Virus record (IMG/VR): IMGVR_UViG_3300045988_056069
Span: 1-13,402 of that record
Source of the DNA: a virus
Strand: one strand, 5' to 3'
DNA: 13,402 nt
Shown: positions 1 through 13,402 of the stretch, piece after piece
How positions within the stretch are numbered: the first letter of the stretch is position 1
Layout: the number at the start of each line of letters is the position of its first letter
Made by a program: the position numbers and the translations under genes
Notes under the pieces: model-generated
Database searches by the model: none
What the model was told of the DNA's origin: nothing
The model's input: the letters and a program-made list of their open reading frames with translations, nothing else

Positions 1-117
1 TAGATTAACCACCACTGGCGGACATTTGTCTTTCCCCCACGGACACATTTGTGCGCACAACACGGACACAATTTGTCCGTGGTAGGCGGACAGGGTGTGC
101 TTTAACGTGCTAAAGTG
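1..117. repeat. Left inverted terminal repeat (1-53 perfect; degenerate ungapped similarity to about 117)
   Basis: Hand reverse-complementing 13286-13402 gives tagattaaccaccactggcggacatttgtctttcccccacggacacatttgtg, identical to 1-53. Positions 54-117 match at roughly 40 of 64 positions without gaps. CGGACA-type motifs fall at the same offsets at both ends (20-24, 41-45, 64-68, 88-92). Confidence 0.95.
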
Positions 118-129
118 GAGGTATATTAT

Positions 130-1100: not shown

Positions 1101-1716
1101 CCCAAAAGACACCCCGGAACTGTACACACTGGACGCAATCCGACACGCTGACGTATGGACACCTGAAACAATCAAGCGAGAATACCAGAGACTAAGATCA
1201 ATCGCAGTGAAGCGCTTAAAGCGCATGGAAGAAAGCGAAATCGGCAGAGCAAGCAAGACATACTATTATAACAAGGACAAGTATAAACCTGCTTCTGAAC
1301 TGAAACCATACGAGCAGAAAATCCTATTGGCAGACCTTGCAAAGATGATGCAAGCCAAGACCGGCACACTCACAGGCATTAAGCGCTATCGCAAAGAAGC
1401 AATCAAGACTTTCCACGAACATGGCTACGAATACGTTAACGAACAAAATTTTAATGATATAGGCGAATTCTTCCGGTATTGGAAAGCGTCTAATCTGCGT
1501 GGCTATGGTAGTCTTGTAGCAATGGACGTATACGAGAAAATCAAAAACTCAGAAGCATTTGAACGAGCAACGCAGAAAGTCAATAAATCAGCCGAAATTT
1601 TCCGGGCGTTCCAAGCGTGGCAAGCGGAGCGAGATGCACCATTTGAACGCAAGTCGAATGTTGTTGAACGATCTTCCGGTGAGCTATTGCAGGCGTTAGA
1701 TGAATTTCTATGGTAA
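1054..1716 (+). CDS. Candidate terminal (genome-linked priming) protein, 220 aa
   Basis: Position is the main evidence. The gene lies immediately upstream of the protein-primed PolB and is translationally coupled to it (ATGGTAA overlap at 1710-1716), as in phi29 genes 3 and 2. The product is highly charged, K/R/E-rich and predicted helical. The segment EYQRLRSIAVKRLKR loosely recalls the N-terminal basic region of phi29 TP, from memory only. AAGGAG lies at 1038-1043 with a 10-nt spacer. The CDS itself is confident; the function is inferred. Confidence 0.5.
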   Translation: MKFYRTADPATGEVIDPKDTPELYTLDAIRHADVWTPETIKREYQRLRSIAVKRLKRMEESEIGRASKTYYYNKDKYKPASELKPYEQKILLADLAKMMQAKTGTLTGIKRYRKEAIKTFHEHGYEYVNEQNFNDIGEFFRYWKASNLRGYGSLVAMDVYEKIKNSEAFERATQKVNKSAEIFRAFQAWQAERDAPFERKSNVVERSSGELLQALDEFLW

Positions 1717-3734
1717 TCAAGCCGTCAGAATTTCCCCTTGCATGGCTTGAGCAAATACCGGAAGTAAAACGGAAGAAAGGCAACCAACGCACAAAGAAGC
1801 GCCGGAAATATAAAGACCTTATAACAGCGTTTGACATTGAGACAACCAGACTTGCAGATATTGAAAACTCTATCATGTACATCTGGCAGTGGCAATTTGG
1901 AAACGCCTACACGGTTGTTGGGAGAACATGGGATGAATTTACACAATTTCAAAAGAAGTTGCAGAACGTTCTTGATGACACTTTTCTGGTTGTTTTTGTT
2001 CACAATCTTTCCTATGAATTCCAGTTTCTAAGAGGTATCTACCTCTTTGAGCCGGAAGAAGTTTTCGCCGTCCGATCTCGTAAAGTTTTGAAATGTGATA
2101 TGCACAACTGTTTTGAATTCCGATGCAGTTACCTGCACAGCAACATGAACTTAGACACATATACTAAGAAAATGGGCGTACAGCATAAGAAGCTGACAGG
2201 AACATTTGACTATGACAAAGTACGCTATCCATGGACAGAACTGACCGAACAGGAATTAGCTTATTGCATACATGATGTGCAAGGCTTAACCGAAGCAATT
2301 CAAATTGAAATGGAGCATGACGGAGATAACCTGTATACATTTCCGCTAACTTCAACTGGCTATGTCCGCCGGGATGCCAAGAAAGCAATGTCGGAAGTGT
2401 CTTACAATTTCGTCAAAGGTCAGTTACCAGACTATGAGATATACAAAATGCTTAGGGAAGCGTTCCGGGGAGGTAACACCCATGCAAATAGATACTATGC
2501 AAATTACACCTTGCACAACGTTCACAGCGCAGACCGATCCAGCAGTTACCCGGATGTAATGTGCAACTGCAAATTCCCTGTCAGCGAATTTTACCGGCTG
2601 GGCGATGTACCATTTGACGAAGTTATCAAGATATTAGGAAAGCGTCAAAAAGCCTGCATTATGCGAGTAGCAATCACAGGCGCACACCTGCAAAGGGTTG
2701 ATTGGGGATGCCCCTATCTATCATTAGCAAAGTGCCGACACGTTGAAAACGCACTGCTTGATAATGGTAGAATTGTATCCGCTGACTATCTGGAAACCAC
2801 CATAACAGACATTGACTTGAAAATTTTACTAAGTGAGTACGCATGGACGGATATGAAAATTTACGATGTAGCAACCGCCCGTTATGGATACTTGCCTAAG
2901 CCGCTAATAAAAACGATCTGCCAATACTACCACTACAAGACAGAGTTAAAGAACGTTGACGGGCAAGAATTGCTATATATGAAATCAAAGAACAAGCTAA
3001 ACTCGCTTTATGGAATGTGTGCACAAGACCCTGTAAAGCAGTCGATCCTATTTATAGATAATGACTTTAAAGAACAGAACGAGGACGAAGCCGGTTTACT
3101 GTTAGCATATAACCGAAAGGCGTTCCTTGCATATCAGTGGGGCGTGTGGGTGACAGCATGGGCAAGATATAGACTTGAGGAGGGTATCAGGCTTGCCCAC
3201 GGTGATCCAGATGATCCCAATGCACCGCAATTTGTCTATTGCGATACCGATAGCGTTAAATATTTAGGTGAAATCAATCTGGACAAATTTAACCGGGAAC
3301 GCATTAAAGACAGCCGCAACAGCGGAGCATACGCCACTGATTCGGCAGGGATTACACACTACATGGGCGTATACGAGCAAGAGCATGATATGTGCGAATT
3401 TCGGACAATGGGCGCAAAAAAGTATGTTTACCGTGAAACACCGGATAGCAAACTGATCTGCACCATTGCCGGAGTTGAGAAAAAGAAAGGGGGTGAAGAA
3501 CTTGAAGCGCACGGAGGAATTACAGCCTTTCACGAGGGATTTACCTTTGTCAAAGCCGGAGGACTTGAAGCAATTTATAACGATCTGCCCACATACATCG
3601 CAACAGAGTATGAAGCAGGGGGACAGACCTGTCAAATTACGGCTAATGTCTGCCTACGGCCAAGCACTTATACATTAGGACTGACAGCCGATTATAAGCG
3701 GCTATTGACAGAAATCAGGTATGAATATGAATGA
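1710..3734 (+). CDS. Family B DNA polymerase, protein-primed type (phi29 gp2-like)
   Basis: The 674-aa product carries all the diagnostic motifs. ExoI is FDIETT (nt 1830-1847). The ExoII-like motif is HNLSYE (2001-2018). ExoIII is YCIHD. Also present are FRGGNTH, motif A DRSSSYP, motif B KNKLNSLYG (2988-3014), motif C YCDTDS (3237-3254) and a KKY-containing GAKKYVY. Its location in an ITR-bounded linear genome next to a TP candidate fits this call. Confidence 0.95.
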   Translation: MVIKPSEFPLAWLEQIPEVKRKKGNQRTKKRRKYKDLITAFDIETTRLADIENSIMYIWQWQFGNAYTVVGRTWDEFTQFQKKLQNVLDDTFLVVFVHNLSYEFQFLRGIYLFEPEEVFAVRSRKVLKCDMHNCFEFRCSYLHSNMNLDTYTKKMGVQHKKLTGTFDYDKVRYPWTELTEQELAYCIHDVQGLTEAIQIEMEHDGDNLYTFPLTSTGYVRRDAKKAMSEVSYNFVKGQLPDYEIYKMLREAFRGGNTHANRYYANYTLHNVHSADRSSSYPDVMCNCKFPVSEFYRLGDVPFDEVIKILGKRQKACIMRVAITGAHLQRVDWGCPYLSLAKCRHVENALLDNGRIVSADYLETTITDIDLKILLSEYAWTDMKIYDVATARYGYLPKPLIKTICQYYHYKTELKNVDGQELLYMKSKNKLNSLYGMCAQDPVKQSILFIDNDFKEQNEDEAGLLLAYNRKAFLAYQWGVWVTAWARYRLEEGIRLAHGDPDDPNAPQFVYCDTDSVKYLGEINLDKFNRERIKDSRNSGAYATDSAGITHYMGVYEQEHDMCEFRTMGAKKYVYRETPDSKLICTIAGVEKKKGGEELEAHGGITAFHEGFTFVKAGGLEAIYNDLPTYIATEYEAGGQTCQITANVCLRPSTYTLGLTADYKRLLTEIRYEYE

Positions 3735-4244: not shown

Positions 4245-5282
4245 ATGAGCCGCATATATCTTGATAGCGGCTATTTAGATATTCACGGATTGCTTGAGCG
4301 GGGCTTGCCCTTTAACTTTGCGGTTGGAGGGCGAGCCACCGGCAAAACTTACGGCAGTCTGTTAGAATCTATCCAAGTTCCAAGAACTTTCTTGCTGATC
4401 CGGCGAACACAGGCACAGGCCGACATTATCACAAAACCGGAGTTTTCCCCATTCAAGCGAATATGCGAGGATCAAAACCTCTTAATAACGTCCTCGCCTG
4501 TTACGAAGTACAACAGCGCCTTTTATTTTTATAAGGTAGACGAGGATGGCAAACAGATACAGCAAGGAAAGCCTTTGGGGTATTCAGCCGCATTATCAAC
4601 ATTTTCCAATATCCGAGGGTTTGACGCTTCTGATGTTGACCTGATGATCTTTGATGAATTTATCCCGGAACGGCACGAGCGCCCAATTAAAAACGAGTTT
4701 GAAGCGCTTATGAACTGCTATGAAACCGTCAACAGAAATAGGGAGCTTCAAGGAAAAAAGCCGGTACAGTTGCTATGTCTCGCCAACGCTAACGATGTAG
4801 CTAACCCGGTGTTTGTCGGTTTCAATCTGGTAAAACGAGCAAATGAGATGTTAGCCAAGGGCAAAGAAGTCTATCAAGACAACAAGCGAGGTATATGTCT
4901 CTATATGCTTCAACACTCGCCCATTTCGGACGAAAAGCGGAACACCGTACTATACAAGGCTACGGAGGGCACACGCTTTTCTGAAATGGCACTGGAAAAC
5001 AAATTTGCATTTAACGATTTCGGAAACATTCGGAGCAGACCTATAAAAGAATTTATCCCTATTTGCGCAATCTCTAAAATCTGCGTGTATCGGCACAAGT
5101 CAGATGGAACCTATTACGTTTCCTTGCACAAGTCCGGCAGTCCCCCATACTACACCGACAGTGAAGCAGATATACAGCGCTTCAAACGCCTGTATGGCTG
5201 GCTATGGGATGCGTACATGAAAAATAAGGTAACTTTTGAAGAATATTTAGCGGAACACTACTTGACAAAGTATCTGAAATAA
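4245..5282 (+). CDS. DNA encapsidation (packaging) ATPase, phi29 gp16-like
   Basis: The 345-aa product has Walker A FAVGGRATGKTY and Walker B DLMIFDEF. It also carries FLLIRRT, ETVNRNRE, LLCLANANDVANPVFVGFNL and FSEMALENKF. These parallel remembered phi29 gp16 segments (VIGARGIGKSY, FIYVRRY, IVFDEFI, DTVFRNRE, CICLSNAVSVVNPYFLFFNL, YGEMSLDNQF). Confidence 0.92.
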   Translation: MSRIYLDSGYLDIHGLLERGLPFNFAVGGRATGKTYGSLLESIQVPRTFLLIRRTQAQADIITKPEFSPFKRICEDQNLLITSSPVTKYNSAFYFYKVDEDGKQIQQGKPLGYSAALSTFSNIRGFDASDVDLMIFDEFIPERHERPIKNEFEALMNCYETVNRNRELQGKKPVQLLCLANANDVANPVFVGFNLVKRANEMLAKGKEVYQDNKRGICLYMLQHSPISDEKRNTVLYKATEGTRFSEMALENKFAFNDFGNIRSRPIKEFIPICAISKICVYRHKSDGTYYVSLHKSGSPPYYTDSEADIQRFKRLYGWLWDAYMKNKVTFEEYLAEHYLTKYLK

Positions 5283-6583: not shown

Positions 6584-6913
6584 ATGTTTAAGCCTGACGA
6601 AATTCTGACCCTTGCAAAAGCCGGTTTTACTGCACAGCAGATTGCCGGACTTTCTATGATTAGCAATCCCCCCGTTCCTCAGCCTGCGCCCGTTCCTCAG
6701 CCTGCGCCCGTTCCTCAGCCTGCGCCTGTTCCTCAGCCTGCGCCTGTTCCTCAGCCTGCGCCTGTTCCTGTTGATCCCGTCCTTGCAGAGTTGCAGAAGC
6801 TGACCGGACTTGTGCAAGGGAGCAACATCATGAACGTGAATCAGCCCAAGGTTCAGACCCCGGAAGAAATTCTCGCGGAGATTATCAATCCCGCGCCGAA
6901 AGGAGAAAAATAA
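6584..6913 (+). CDS. Putative scaffolding protein with PVPQPA repeat linker
   Basis: The 109-aa gene lies immediately upstream of the major capsid gene, like phi29 gp7 (about 98 aa). Its N-terminus (DEILTLAKAGFTAQQIAGL) resembles a helix-extension-helix motif. The middle is five and a half PVPQPA repeats, and the C-terminus is predicted helical. The function is positional inference. Confidence 0.45.
   Translation: MFKPDEILTLAKAGFTAQQIAGLSMISNPPVPQPAPVPQPAPVPQPAPVPQPAPVPQPAPVPVDPVLAELQKLTGLVQGSNIMNVNQPKVQTPEEILAEIINPAPKGEK
6671..6769 (+). repeat. 18-bp in-frame tandem repeat, 5.5 copies (encodes PVPQPA)
   Basis: Units fall at 6671, 6689, 6707, 6725 and 6743, with a partial unit at 6761-6769. 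Units 1-3 are cccgttcctcagcctgcg. Units 4-5 and the partial unit begin cct instead of ccc, and are otherwise identical. Confidence 0.97.
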
Positions 6914-6916
6914 AAT

Positions 6917-8131
6917 ATGGCAAATGTTAATGACATGACCATTTTCCAGGCAGGCACTATTCTACAATCCCTTGTCCAGCAGGCGACCGGCCAGGCGGTT
7001 ATTACCGCTTCCACTCCCGGCGAGTTTGTCAGCGTGGCACAGGTTGCGCTGAAAACTGGCTATGACCCCATCTTGAATGCAATGTCCCAGATGTGGGGCC
7101 GTACTATTTTCAGTATCCGCCCCTATGAGCGCAAGTTCTCCGGCTTGGAAATGAACATGAGCCGCTGGGGTAACGCCGTTCGGAAGTTGTCTATTGCAGA
7201 TAAGCCCATTGAGGACGATGCCCGCTTCATCTGGCCTGTTGGCTACGACGCTACCAAGACCGGTAACCCGCTGGGCAACGGTCAGAGCGTGGATATGTAC
7301 GCCTTGAACAAGCCCGACATTCTTCAGGTCAATTTCTATGGTCAGGCCGTTTATGAAAACAGCTATACCATTTTCGAGGATCAGCTGGACACCGCTTTCA
7401 CCGGCCCGGACGAATTTATGAGGTTTAATGCGATGGTTTCCGGCAACCGCTCCGACAAGCTTGAGCAGTACCGCGAGAATATCGCGCGCGGCATTCTGGC
7501 AAACTACATTGGTTCTATCCTTGCCGAAAAGCAGGCTACGCGCGTTGTACATCTGCTGACAGAGTACAATGCCGAAACCGGTTTGACGCTGACCGCACAG
7601 GCTATCTATCAGCCGGACAACTTCCCCAGCTTTATGCAGTGGGTATACGCGAGAGTTGCAACCATCTCCCGAATGATGACCGAGCGATCCGAGATGTTCC
7701 AGACGGTTATCAACGAGAAGCACGTTATGCGCCACACTCCCGCCGCCCGTCAGAAAGTCTATCTATATGCCAAAGCTATGGATCAGTTTGATGCTATGGT
7801 CAAAGCAAACAGTTTCCACGACAACTATCTCAAGTATACGGACTACGAGGGCGTTAACTTCTGGCAGTCCATCGAAACGCCTGACAGTATCAGTTTGAAG
7901 CCCGTGTACACGTCCACCACCGGCACCGCCACCACCGGCGAGGCCGTGGAACAGGCAGGAATCTTCGGCGTTATCTTTGACGAGGAAGCGCTGGGTTATG
8001 CCCAGATTCGCGCAACCAGCGATATCACCCCGAAGAACGCCAAGGGCCGCTATTGGAACACGTTTGACCATGTTAACTTCCGGGCTATCATGGACATGAG
8101 TGAAAAGGGCGTTCTGCTGTTGCTGGATTAA
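6917..8131 (+). CDS. Major capsid protein, phi29 gp8-like (HK97 fold expected)
   Basis: The 404-aa gene has a strong SD (AAAGGAG) and follows the scaffold-like gene. The C-terminal NAKGRYWNTFDHV resembles remembered phi29 gp8 NPRGLYWNYYYHV. Its size and the synteny scaffold-MCP-tail knob fit this call. A terminator-like hairpin follows, which is typical of highly expressed capsid genes. Confidence 0.8.
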   Translation: MANVNDMTIFQAGTILQSLVQQATGQAVITASTPGEFVSVAQVALKTGYDPILNAMSQMWGRTIFSIRPYERKFSGLEMNMSRWGNAVRKLSIADKPIEDDARFIWPVGYDATKTGNPLGNGQSVDMYALNKPDILQVNFYGQAVYENSYTIFEDQLDTAFTGPDEFMRFNAMVSGNRSDKLEQYRENIARGILANYIGSILAEKQATRVVHLLTEYNAETGLTLTAQAIYQPDNFPSFMQWVYARVATISRMMTERSEMFQTVINEKHVMRHTPAARQKVYLYAKAMDQFDAMVKANSFHDNYLKYTDYEGVNFWQSIETPDSISLKPVYTSTTGTATTGEAVEQAGIFGVIFDEEALGYAQIRATSDITPKNAKGRYWNTFDHVNFRAIMDMSEKGVLLLLD

Positions 8132-9577: not shown

Positions 9578-10117
9578 ATGGCATGGATTACAGGAAACCG
9601 CTATCTGTCGATGGACGAAATGAAGAACAACGCCGACATTATGCATTATTTCTTCAAGTCTAACAGATGGACGGATAACGCTATCTCCGCCATGTTTGGC
9701 AATATGCAGACAGAAAGCACACTGAATCCGGGAATATGGGAAAACCTTGACCCGTTTGTGGGCGGCTATGGGTTGGTACAGTGGACACCGTACACCAATT
9801 ATTCCGAATGGGCCGGTACTAACTGGCAAGACAACGGGCAGAAAGAGATGGAGCGGATCATATACGAGTTGGAGAACCGCTTGCAGTGGATCAGTACCAG
9901 CCTTTACCCTATGACGTTCCGGGAGTTCTCGCAATCTGATAAGCCGCCTGCCTATCTTGCGCAAGCGTTCCTATATAACTATGAGCGCCCAACAGTGAAG
10001 CCGCAACCGGCACGGAGCAAGCAAGCGGAATACTGGTATCAGTACATCACAGGGCATGAGCCGCCGATCTCACAGCTACCGATCTGGCTACTATTTAAAA
10101 TGAAAGAAAGGAGATGA
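9578..10117 (+). CDS. Tail-associated lysozyme (Phage_lysozyme2-type peptidoglycan hydrolase)
   Basis: The motifs FGNMQTESTLNPG (candidate catalytic Glu) and GGYGLVQWTP are typical of the phage tail lysozyme family. ATG 9578 (AGGTGA 9566-9571, 6-nt spacer) is preferred over the track GTG at 9572. This gives 179 aa. Confidence 0.8.
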   Translation: MAWITGNRYLSMDEMKNNADIMHYFFKSNRWTDNAISAMFGNMQTESTLNPGIWENLDPFVGGYGLVQWTPYTNYSEWAGTNWQDNGQKEMERIIYELENRLQWISTSLYPMTFREFSQSDKPPAYLAQAFLYNYERPTVKPQPARSKQAEYWYQYITGHEPPISQLPIWLLFKMKERR

Positions 10118-10122
10118 TCCCA

Positions 10123-11064
10123 ATGATTGGTAACGGTATCCCGGCAAACTATGATTATATCAACGCGCAAAACGCCGCTGTAAGTCCGTCCACCGTCCAT
10201 TGCAGAAACACAGCACTTTCCCAATACTTCCGGCGCTACCTGCTTCAAAAGGCTATGTCGCTTTTCAAGTGGAAGTTGCCGGAGCATTGGAGCAAGAATT
10301 ATTTCCTGTATGTGCTGTACTGCTGGGGCTATCTCGCAGTTGTCAACACAAACAGTTTTGGTGTTATTCCGCAGGGGTGCACCCTGACCGGCTATAACGT
10401 GTTCTACCAGCCGACTAACGCAATTATCACAAATCCCCTCTTGCGTGGTATCCTTGAGCCAAGAATCGGAAGCCAATGCACGATTATCCGTTTACAGCCG
10501 GACTATGGCGGTATTATGGATATTGTGGGGTACTATGGCGATATGTTAGCGCTGTGCGCTGAATCTGTCGGAATGAACCTTATGAACACACACCTTGCGT
10601 ATGTGTTTGCGGCTGGTAACAAGACCGCCGCAGAGAGCTTCAAAAAGATGTATGACCGTGTAGCGTCCGGCGAAGTCTGCACAGTGATTGACAAGAACCT
10701 GTTCCGGGATGACGGAAGTAAAGCGTGGGAAGCGTTTGAACAGAACTTGAAGCAGGTTTATATCAGTTCCGACATTCTCAGCGATATGCGCAAAATTGAA
10801 GCAATGTTTGACACGGATATTGGCATTCCCAACGCTAACACGGACAAGCGTGAACGGCTGGTAACTGACGAAGTGAACGCTAATAACGTTGAGACACAGA
10901 GCAAATGCGCTATGTGGCTGGAAGAATTGCAGGAGAGTATCAAGGCAACAAACGATATGTTTGGCTTAGATCTTTCTGTTGAGTGGCGATTCCCTGACGC
11001 TTATGAAGGGGGTGTGAACAATGTCGGCAACAGTAAGCCTGTTGGGCCTGAAACGGTTGAATGA
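10123..11064 (+). CDS. Head-tail connector (portal / upper collar), phi29 gp10-like
   Basis: The segment IGIPNANTDKRERLVTDEVNANNVETQS...FGLDLSVEWRF closely parallels remembered phi29 gp10 [29 protein letters not shown]...YGLNVKVKFRY. The size (313 aa) is close to gp10 (309 aa). ATG 10123 (AAGGAG 10108-10113, 9-nt spacer) is preferred over the track ATG 10114, which has zero spacer. Confidence 0.9.
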   Translation: MIGNGIPANYDYINAQNAAVSPSTVHCRNTALSQYFRRYLLQKAMSLFKWKLPEHWSKNYFLYVLYCWGYLAVVNTNSFGVIPQGCTLTGYNVFYQPTNAIITNPLLRGILEPRIGSQCTIIRLQPDYGGIMDIVGYYGDMLALCAESVGMNLMNTHLAYVFAAGNKTAAESFKKMYDRVASGEVCTVIDKNLFRDDGSKAWEAFEQNLKQVYISSDILSDMRKIEAMFDTDIGIPNANTDKRERLVTDEVNANNVETQSKCAMWLEELQESIKATNDMFGLDLSVEWRFPDAYEGGVNNVGNSKPVGPETVE

Positions 11065-12373: not shown

Positions 12374-13237
12374 ATGAGTACTCAGACTGAACACTTGAAA
12401 CTTGACCTACGTGAAGCCGCCGACATTTTCAACCCCTTGAGCACTAACGCTAACTTTGAAAGTCTGGATAACATTATCTATGAAATCCAGACTAAGGGCG
12501 GTGTGCCTACTTACACCACTACGGCAAGCGCTAACCTGTTGAAGCTGTCGCAGAATCCCACGCCTAACGTGACCGTGTTCAAGTTCGTTGCGGCTGGTGA
12601 CGCTAACACATGGAGTTATCAGGAAACTGTTAACGACATTGTGGCACTGGACGGCAGTAAGAAAACTGTCAAGGGCGGCGAAATGTATGTCGCATGGGTG
12701 AATGCGGCTAATGCTATGGTTGTCATTGCATGGCCTGATGTGGTCAATGCTCAGACCTTTGACGGCAAAGGCCCTGCTGAATGGGCAAGCAAAGCACAGT
12801 TGGATGCAGTCAACCAGACAGCGGCCAATGCTACCCAAACGGCACAGGCGGCGGCTACGGTGGCGAATAATGCTAATAAACGTGGATTGCTAAGAAAACG
12901 AATTTATAGCGCATCGTTACCTTACCCAACGTCTATTGAGCCGCAAACCATTAAAATTGGAAAAATTACTGAAACCCCACTATTTGCCGTTATTACGTGC
13001 GGTAGCGGTGCAAGTGCAATCTTTATTGTTGGAAGTGGCGCAGGAGGAGGTACAAGTCTGCAATCGGACGCAAATGGTACTACACGTGGAACAAGACGGT
13101 TGTATCTTAATAGCTCTGTTGTTGACGGATATAGTTTACAGGTAGGAGCAGGCACAAGACTTGACGGAACAACAGATAATGAACTTTGTATTCCTCTTTA
13201 TGTTGACATTTTCTATATGGGAACTTCTGAAGAATAA
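12374..13237 (+). CDS. Tail fibre / receptor-binding protein, 287 aa
   Basis: A strong SD, TAAGGAGGTATT, lies upstream. The N-terminal TEHLKLDLREAADIFNPLSTNANFESLDNI resembles the common Firmicute-phage fibre anchor pattern (L.L.KP......N.N.D.ID). A DGKGPAEWASKAQLD motif is followed by an A/Q/T/N-rich helical neck. The C-terminal beta-rich knob has lower GC. This is the last gene before the terminator. Confidence 0.6.
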   Translation: MSTQTEHLKLDLREAADIFNPLSTNANFESLDNIIYEIQTKGGVPTYTTTASANLLKLSQNPTPNVTVFKFVAAGDANTWSYQETVNDIVALDGSKKTVKGGEMYVAWVNAANAMVVIAWPDVVNAQTFDGKGPAEWASKAQLDAVNQTAANATQTAQAAATVANNANKRGLLRKRIYSASLPYPTSIEPQTIKIGKITETPLFAVITCGSGASAIFIVGSGAGGGTSLQSDANGTTRGTRRLYLNSSVVDGYSLQVGAGTRLDGTTDNELCIPLYVDIFYMGTSEE

Positions 13238-13245
13238 TATATATT

Positions 13246-13280
13246 GGCCCGTGTTGAAATATACACGGGCCTATTTATAT
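13246..13280 (+). terminator. Intrinsic terminator at the end of the operon
   Basis: A perfect 9-bp stem pairs GGCCCGTGT (13246-13254) with ACACGGGCC (13263-13271), with an 8-nt loop. It is followed by T-rich TATTTATAT. It starts 8 nt after the last stop codon. Confidence 0.8.
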
Positions 13281-13285
13281 ACTGT

Positions 13286-13402
13286 CACTTTAATGTACTA
13301 AAGTGCTCCCTGTCCACGCCACACGTACAACTTGTATCCACCGTGCGCACACAAATGTGTCCGTGGGGGAAAGACAAATGTCCGCCAGTGGTGGTTAATC
13401 TA
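13286..13402. repeat. Right inverted terminal repeat (13350-13402 perfect; degenerate similarity from about 13286)
   Basis: This is the reverse complement of 1-53 (perfect) and of 54-117 (imperfect). It includes a perfect 7-bp inverted repeat, CACTTTA-N6-TAAAGTG, at 13286-13305. Confidence 0.95.

Follow-up and report, generated by a model that had tools for sequence, protein, structure and literature searches.

Why should a five-base motif recur at regular steps, and at matching distances from both ends, in a linear phage genome? The question is raised by the viral DNA analysed here, a stretch of 13,402 nucleotides that we refer to as the window. The window is a 13.4 kb linear genome of a small phi29-like gut podovirus, with every large gene on the plus strand. 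Most of what is known about protein-primed replication comes from phi29, PRD1 and adenovirus. For phi29, origin recognition is attributed largely to the parental terminal protein (TP), together with a coat on the DNA that is indifferent to sequence. A sequence-only reading of the window described four GGACA motifs close to each end. It proposed that they form a phased protein-binding array, under selection at the replication origins. Our analysis bears out a selected, phased and probably protein-binding origin element. However, the unit is not four sites. Rather, what is conserved is a box of 26 bp that contains two sites, spaced by 21 bp. In the searchable literature, we found no description of such a box.

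GGACA motifs in the terminal repeats of the window

Open reading frames (ORFs) of the window matched the Pfam families DNA_pol_B_2, Podovirus_Gp16, Phi29_MCP and Phage_connector. Hence, the family B polymerase and the phi29-type packaging and structural genes occur together with terminal inverted repeats (ITRs), as in protein-primed replicons. Features are listed in Table 1. The ORF taken as the TP candidate had no Pfam or PHROG match. It lies upstream of the polymerase gene and ORF clustering indicates that it is kept in nearly all clades. The gene for a ribbon-helix-helix (RHH) protein sits immediately 5' of it. A scan against Rfam detected neither pRNA nor other RNA families. Among GenBank phages, there was no DNA match to the whole window or to the ITR. 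The window polymerase is at most 57% identical to those of unannotated human-gut phage scaffolds. The two best protein-level relatives fetched from GenBank, MT835998 and MT836263, have sequences that stop before the genome ends. Separately, an ORF at 6584–6913 contains an 18 bp tandem repeat (5.5 copies, 98% identity, 6671–6769) that is also found at the end of L008.

Table 1 Positions of features in the window
Feature	Position	Strand	Basis or remark
Left ITR	1–126	+	1–53 identical to right end; 54–126 imperfect
Right ITR	13277–13402	-	Repeat comparison
Terminal core TAGATTAAC	1–9	+	Inner part of G[CT]GATAGATTAAC, conserved in clade A
Conserved 26 bp box, putative origin element	20–45	+	GGACA#1, TTTGTCTTTCCCCCAC, GGACA#2; motifs 21 bp apart
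Same 26 bp box, right end	13358–13383	-	Motif match
Pyrimidine tract TTTGTCTTTCCCCC between core motifs	25–38	+	Free pattern columns hold only Y or M
Accessory GGACA#3	64–68	+	Unit 3 duplicates unit 2
Accessory GGACA#4	88–92	+	12 nt before CTTTA-N6-TAAAG dyad
Degenerate accessory GGATA (#3, right end)	13335–13339	-	Same allele in L003, L009
Accessory GGACA#4, right end	13311–13315	-	Motif match
Dyad CTTTA-N6-TAAAG, inner ITR edge	100–115	.	2 copies in window; 0/200 shuffles reach 2
Dyad CTTTA-N6-TAAAG, right end	13288–13303	.	2 copies in window; 0/200 shuffles reach 2
RHH protein, 65 aa	903–1100	+	PF01402 RHH_1, 25.5 bits (cut-off 20.5)
TP candidate, 220 aa	1054–1716	+	Position upstream of polymerase; conservation
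Protein-primed family B polymerase	1710–3734	+	Pfam PF03175, E = 7.5e-15
Phi29-SSB-like protein, 110 aa	3909–4241	+	Pfam 20.9 bits, below cut-off 25
Gp16 packaging ATPase	4245–5282	+	Pfam
Phi29-type capsid protein	6917–8131	+	Pfam
Connector	10114–11064	+	Pfam

In the left ITR, GGACA occurs at 20–24, 41–45, 64–68 and 88–92, in steps of 21, 23 and 24 bp. These coordinates were all re-verified, and C precedes each of the four copies. At the right end, the same offsets fall at plus-strand positions 13379–13383, 13358–13362, 13335–13339 and 13311–13315, the third of which is GGATA. The motif frequency is not explained by chance: GGACA reached at least four copies in none of 20,000 dinucleotide-preserving shuffles. 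There are also four copies of CGGACA in 117 nt; any 6-mer attained at least four copies in 0.4% of 20,000 such shuffles. Outside the two ITRs, no 117 nt stretch of the window held three or more GGACA motifs.

The earlier reading held that spacing, and not the sequence between the motifs, has been kept at the two ends. Within the window alone the difference is marginal (9/10 motif columns versus 32/54 other columns, Fisher P = 0.06) and the claim is sustained through the relatives described below. Beyond position 53 the ends do diverge, but 36% of positions differ and not the 40% first given (54–117 are 64% identical without gaps). An 8 bp palindrome, GTGCGCAC, begins at 51 in the left repeat and at 53 in the right one, as reported. 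The accompanying suggestion, that 5 nt and 3 nt of filler restore the register after a 2 bp shift, is not needed; the best global alignment has substitutions only. The GACA...TGTC dyad GGACACAATTTGTCC is present at 64–78 but dyads of this kind are not conserved in relatives. The statement that the sites share a helix face is strictly true of the core pair only. Taking a helical repeat of 10.5 bp, the phase difference from site 1 is ~70 degrees for site 3 and ~170 degrees for site 4.

Conservation in the window's clade and the physical ends

We collected relatives by a polymerase-based scan of IMG/VR, which gave 80 loci. The 28 closest, with polymerases 79–97% identical to that of the window, are called clade A. 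Since clade A was retrieved by polymerase homology, it carries no bias toward the motif. Conservation in related genomes had been set as the test of the original proposal, which comes through it strongly. Of the 27 clade-A contig ends that reach the ITR, 26 have GGACA-N16-GGACA at the offsets seen in the window. The sole exception has GTACA as its second site. This pair is essentially confined to termini. Both ends of L012 and L025 keep the box although their ITRs have diverged inside it. In L017 and at the right end of L024 (L024_R), spacers cannot be aligned with those of the window, yet GGACA recurs at +25/+21 and +23/+22. The box is described by the formula GGACA-YTYGTYTYYCCMMNNN-GGACA, in which the two motifs are exactly 21 bp apart.

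Several relatives run 3–4 nt past the first base of the window and read G[CT]GA|TAGATTAAC. An Illumina TruSeq adapter is joined directly to the outermost G in L016_R, L026_R and at both L027 ends. The relatives with this outer sequence include L013 and L018. By comparison with such genomes, the window probably lacks ~4 terminal nt at each end. The motif offsets of 20, 41, 64 and 88 were counted from the contig ends. Because the physical end would lie 4 nt outside the contig end, the true offsets become ~24, 45, 68 and 92. The two core motifs form an ancient and strongly conserved box, some 24 bases from the true end, that is most likely a site of protein docking at the replication origin.

The window contig itself begins TAGATT (checked for the terminal reiteration that permits sliding back or jumping back). 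Physical ends of clades A–F and others (L341, L350, L072, L059, L048) start GCG, GTG, GGG, CGC or GAG. In each, base 1 equals base 3, a pattern that would be compatible with priming opposite base 3 of the template and a subsequent jump back. Other ends were less simple. L011 has an entire terminus, GTGATAGATTAACC, that has become internal and sits 150 nt within an additional ITR copy of left type (L011 13404–13703). Either end replacement by recombination or a chimeric assembly could account for this. Terminal assembly artefacts were also seen. At both ends of L030, the true end GGGATTACG is followed on its outer side by a snap-back duplication. The right end of L355 continues for another 77 nt past the terminus, and both ends of L038 carry Nextera adapter sequence.

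Just inward of the right ITR of the window, and abutting it, is a GC-rich hairpin, GGCCCGTGT...ACACGGGCC, at 13245–13270. It directly follows the last ORF (12374–13237) and is probably the terminator of the late operon. In L003, L009, L011 and L018, the right end has a copy of the left promoter region instead.

A sub-terminal box in other phi29-like clades

Scanning IMG/VR with the pattern GGACANTNGTNTNNCCNNNNNGGACA identified 49 loci. In 39 of these, the match lies within ~130 nt of the end of a 7–14 kb contig, often at both ends. Contigs with a terminal box comprise clade A and at least five further clades (B–F) of phi29-like genomes, 12–14 kb in length. The element therefore recurs, in position and phasing, at both genome ends and across clades. 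Terminal sequences are GGGATAATCTGTA... in clade B, GTGGAATACTCAAGTCC... in clade C, CGCCTATATAGGTATCC... in clade D, GTGGTAGAACTG... in clade E and GGAGCCTAAATAGG... in clade F. The corresponding polymerases are 50%, 44%, 44%, 27% and 49% identical to that of the window; the range for box clades beyond A is also put at 27–51%. In clades B–F, the box starts 22–26 nt from the physical end, as confirmed by adapter junctions in L341, L345, L350 and L351. Ahead of the box, the termini have little in common past the first few bases (~6 nt).

High identity of the box in clades B–F is partly by construction, since these clades were found by searching for it. The columns left free by the search pattern still contain only pyrimidines (Y) or C/A (M) in these clades. 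Hence, the whole 26-mer is constrained, and not just the two pentamers.

Further copies of G[GA]ACA follow inward at steps of 19–25 bp, for a total of 2–6 per end. L017, L024_R and clade C have a lattice of 0, 21, 44–46 and 66–68. For clade C the exact values are 0, 21, 44 and 66, the last being GAACA. The lattice of clade B is 0, 21, 40 (inverted), 60, 81 and 87. In clade A, there are no copies beyond the pair in L012_L, L013, L014, L021, L025_L, L026 and L027. One extra copy is present in L002_R and L024_L, two at some ends, as in the window, and three in L024_R. Copy number can also differ between the ends of one genome (2 versus 4 in L012, 4 versus 3 in L002). Since copy number varies in this way, we interpret sites 3 and 4 of the window as accessory, iteron-like and evolutionarily labile.

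Are the accessory sites functional? Possibly not. Only the 26 bp core may matter, with sites 3 and 4 the neutral leftovers of ~23 bp tandem duplication, regular because they are copies and not because of selection. We regard this as doubtful but far from negligible. In keeping with it, units 2 and 3 of the window both contain CACGGACACA(A)TTTGT, from which it follows that the array grows by unit duplication. The variable and unequal copy number points the same way, and L021_R equals the right end of the window minus exactly two units. Degenerate accessory copies (GGATA, GTACA, GAACA) persist across ends, and other duplications span 47 and 63 bp. Neutral copying is harder to reconcile with GGACA at lattice positions where spacers are unalignable (L017, L024_R and clades B and C). 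The chance of such lattice survival was estimated at roughly 4e-5 per lineage.

At the left end of L026 (~45–150), a 63 bp tandem duplication carries both a GGACA site and the CTTTA...TAAAG dyad. Whole ITR modules therefore duplicate, and not only 23 bp units.

The box does not follow the polymerase phylogeny. In a neighbour-joining polymerase tree, box-bearing clades are scattered and include the deepest branch. It follows that the box either is ancestral and has frequently been replaced, or has been exchanged horizontally. Many related clades with the same TP, polymerase and packaging genes have no exact box and only TTCCCC or TGACA variants. Hence, the box is not indispensable to replication of this kind. 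In the L029/L030 clade, one of those without the box, TGACA replaces GGACA. In a more distant clade (L041, L044), with polymerase identity of 55%, a TTCCCC box is surrounded by copies of GTGGACA, some in each orientation. A second polymerase-based scan for members of this L040–44 clade yielded nothing beyond the four already found.

Two other terminal elements were noted. TTCCCC (32–38 in the window) occurs at a similar distance from the end, 30–45 nt, in clades that lack GGACA (L036, L048, L064, L072 and others). In the L043/L045/L064 clade, TTCCCC is followed immediately by a near-consensus promoter, TTGACA-17/18-TAAAAT or TATAAT. The second element, the dyad CTTTA-N6-TAAAG, has conserved arms and a variable spacer. 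In clade A and L044 it comes after the final GGACA, and clades B–F are without it. A promoter in which GGACA would be the -35 hexamer and TAAAGT the -10 was rejected. Among relatives the distance from GGACA to the dyad is 1, 7 or 28 nt, and the two are therefore not one joint promoter. In L012_L, L013_L, L014_L, L021_L and L024_L, the sequence ATTGTTAAAAC(T/A)TTCACA lies between GGACA#2 and the dyad, ~50–75 nt from the end. It resembles a Rex or Crp/Fnr-type operator, TTGTGAA-N4-TTCACAA.

Looser patterns were uninformative. Scanning metagenome contigs for ATAGATTAA-N10/11-GGACA, all matches listed were non-terminal. The same was true of nearly all matches listed when viral contigs were scanned for GGACA-N7-CTTTA-N6-TAAAG. 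Both patterns are too loose.

Candidate binding proteins and comparison with known origins

We favour the interpretation that the GGACA motifs are part of a cis-acting replication origin at each end of a protein-primed, phi29-like genome. On this reading of the comparative data, they would comprise a docking box and an accessory array. The essential part would be the 26 bp sub-terminal box, in which two YGGACA sites flank the pyrimidine tract ~24 nt from the physical end. Spaced by 21 bp, or two helical turns, the core sites would be on the same face of the helix. A sequence-specific replication factor that binds double-stranded DNA could dock here. Once docked, it would position, bend or open the terminal 23–26 bp for the TP/polymerase complex. 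Extra G[GA]ACA copies, such as window sites 3 and 4, would extend the nucleoprotein complex inward, in the manner of plasmid iterons. Such copies would come and go by duplication or deletion of ~22 bp units.

The motifs could instead be early-gene operators. If so, RHH or another early regulator would act at promoters inside the left ITR, and the right copies would reflect ITR homogenisation. The RHH gene adjoins the TP gene, an AT-rich and promoter-like region follows the left ITR, and some sites resemble short dyads. Furthermore, the RHH subfamily is encoded by all 27 clade-A genomes that cover the region. However, the box is kept at right ends that have no nearby promoter and lead straight into the late-operon terminator, and at both ends even when the ITRs have diverged inside it. 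This fits a function needed at both ends. Together with the fixed distance to the physical end across clades, it argues for an origin role over transcription. Nor are the dyads conserved. We therefore consider operators improbable.

The RHH protein, which had been named as a possible binder, is in any case a poor fit. Residues of its beta-strand predicted to contact DNA change from H-T-S to W-N-K while GGACA is invariant. RHH was not detected in three box-bearing clades. With the window RHH, tblastn found no match in clades B–F, a clade-A RHH profile found nothing in the L040–44 clade, and Pfam RHH was absent from the early ORFs scanned in clades B and F and in L041. RHH also showed no obvious co-variation with the CTTTA-N6-TAAAG dyad. 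In L040–L044 and L049, the place upstream of the TP gene that RHH occupies in clade A is taken by a small protein rich in cysteine (CPYN..C..C..CGW.P), which matched no Pfam family and may be a zinc ribbon.

A complex like that of phi29 p6, also put forward earlier, found no support. No p6 family was detected among window ORFs scanned with Pfam or small ORFs scanned with PHROGs. In phi29, there is one p6 dimer per 24 bp, and the protein both opens the ends of the DNA and stimulates initiation primed by TP (PMC4974454). It reads a pattern of bendability and not sequence (PMC4974454), and only Salasmaviridae and Enterococcus are reported to have homologues (PMC11476376). The element described here resembles p6 binding in being periodic and near the origin at both ends. 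It differs in that p6 coats the whole genome, whereas here a specific 5–6-mer is invariant. Moreover, the core pair is spaced by exactly 21 bp and not 24. Accessory steps are 19–25 bp; the p6-type period is ~24 bp. The 110-aa protein looks like an SSB of phi29 type, and would therefore be a non-specific binder of single-stranded DNA.

Which protein, then, might read the box? When the ORFs of 58 genomes were clustered by all-against-all BLAST, none of the protein families was coextensive with it. Families common to the clades are the polymerase, TP, ATPase, structural proteins and, mostly, the SSB-like protein; all of these are also in clades without the box. Among scanned ORFs, there was no match to a Rep family (Pfam, with PHROGs for small ORFs). 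The two foremost candidates are, with equal and limited confidence, the TP–polymerase complex itself and a small phage protein that evolves fast. A host factor would be a somewhat weaker candidate, as would any other protein.

A host DNA-binding protein could read the box, much as NFI and Oct-1 act at adenovirus origins or Spo0A at the ends of phi29. By this analogy, unrelated clades with a common host group would share the box. Three observations are compatible with such sharing: the box departs from the polymerase tree in its distribution, no phage protein tracks it, and it is common to clades whose terminal sequences are clade-specific. However, across 185,579 bacterial and archaeal genomes, there were 13 scattered matches to the box, compared with ~17 estimated by chance, and no organism was enriched. 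The consensus sites of DnaA, Spo0A and LytTR gave no convincing match and none fits all GGACA copies. We judge a host reader to be unlikely.

Could the box serve something other than initiation? Recognition of TP-DNA for packaging, anchoring to the membrane or nucleoid, or a structural polypyrimidine feature are conceivable. A box at both ends, at a fixed distance from the terminal protein, is compatible with these roles as well as with initiation. Against this, phi29 packaging recognises the terminal protein rather than sequence. Furthermore, folding of the single strand gives a weak signal (z about -2), which hinges on a palindrome in unit 3 that is absent from relatives. Such roles are very improbable in our estimation.

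The proposed docking box and accessory array share features with several known elements. The adenovirus ITR origin has a pTP–Pol box at 9–18 and auxiliary NFI and Oct-1 sites. Each is a protein-primed origin located in an ITR. In each, a conserved box lies inward of a terminus that is more variable, at a set distance from it. This bipartite layout is evident here, where the box begins 22–26 nt inside termini that share little beyond ~6 nt. In adenovirus, auxiliary factors also dock beside the core. However, the adenovirus sites are single and read by known host factors, whereas here there are direct repeats two turns apart and a variable array.

Plasmid iterons (RK2, R6K, pPS10, F) are 17–22 bp in length and bound by the Rep initiator of theta replicons. 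Like iterons, the GGACA sites are direct repeats in the same orientation, with a period of ~22 bp and variable copy number, at the predicted origin. As in iteron arrays, at least three direct repeats are present. They are stepped by 21, 23 and 24 bp in the window, and clades A, B and C share this lattice. Unlike iterons, the conserved core is only 5–6 bp, no Rep-like gene was detected among the scanned ORFs and replication would be protein-primed from the ends.

Finally, Spo0A boxes are short repeated 7-mers near phi29 ends and promoters, bound by a host regulator that affects initiation. Both are short repeats close to genome ends. However, the Spo0A site TGTCGAA shares only TGTC with TGTCCGC, and the role of Spo0A is repression and not origin function.

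What does the box mean for this group of phages? In the phi29 paradigm, recognition is of the parental terminal protein, and the p6 coat on the DNA does not depend on sequence. A box that is read would contrast with this. Here, the box was conserved while the polymerase fell to 27% identity and the termini changed, which points to a different mode of origin recognition. We tentatively suggest, well short of thinking it probable, that origin recognition in a large and ancient phi29-like group is sequence-specific. The sub-terminal GGACA-N16-GGACA would be read directly by the TP–polymerase complex or, as in adenovirus, by a host factor. The box is also a practical marker of whether metagenomic phi29-like contigs reach their true ends; by this measure, the window is ~4 nt short on each side. 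If recognition does work in this sequence-specific way, protein-primed replication would have in this box a minimal origin enhancer that is portable. Were it a true enhancer, it might find use in engineered protein-primed replicons. The mode of origin recognition at issue concerns a large group of uncultured gut phages.
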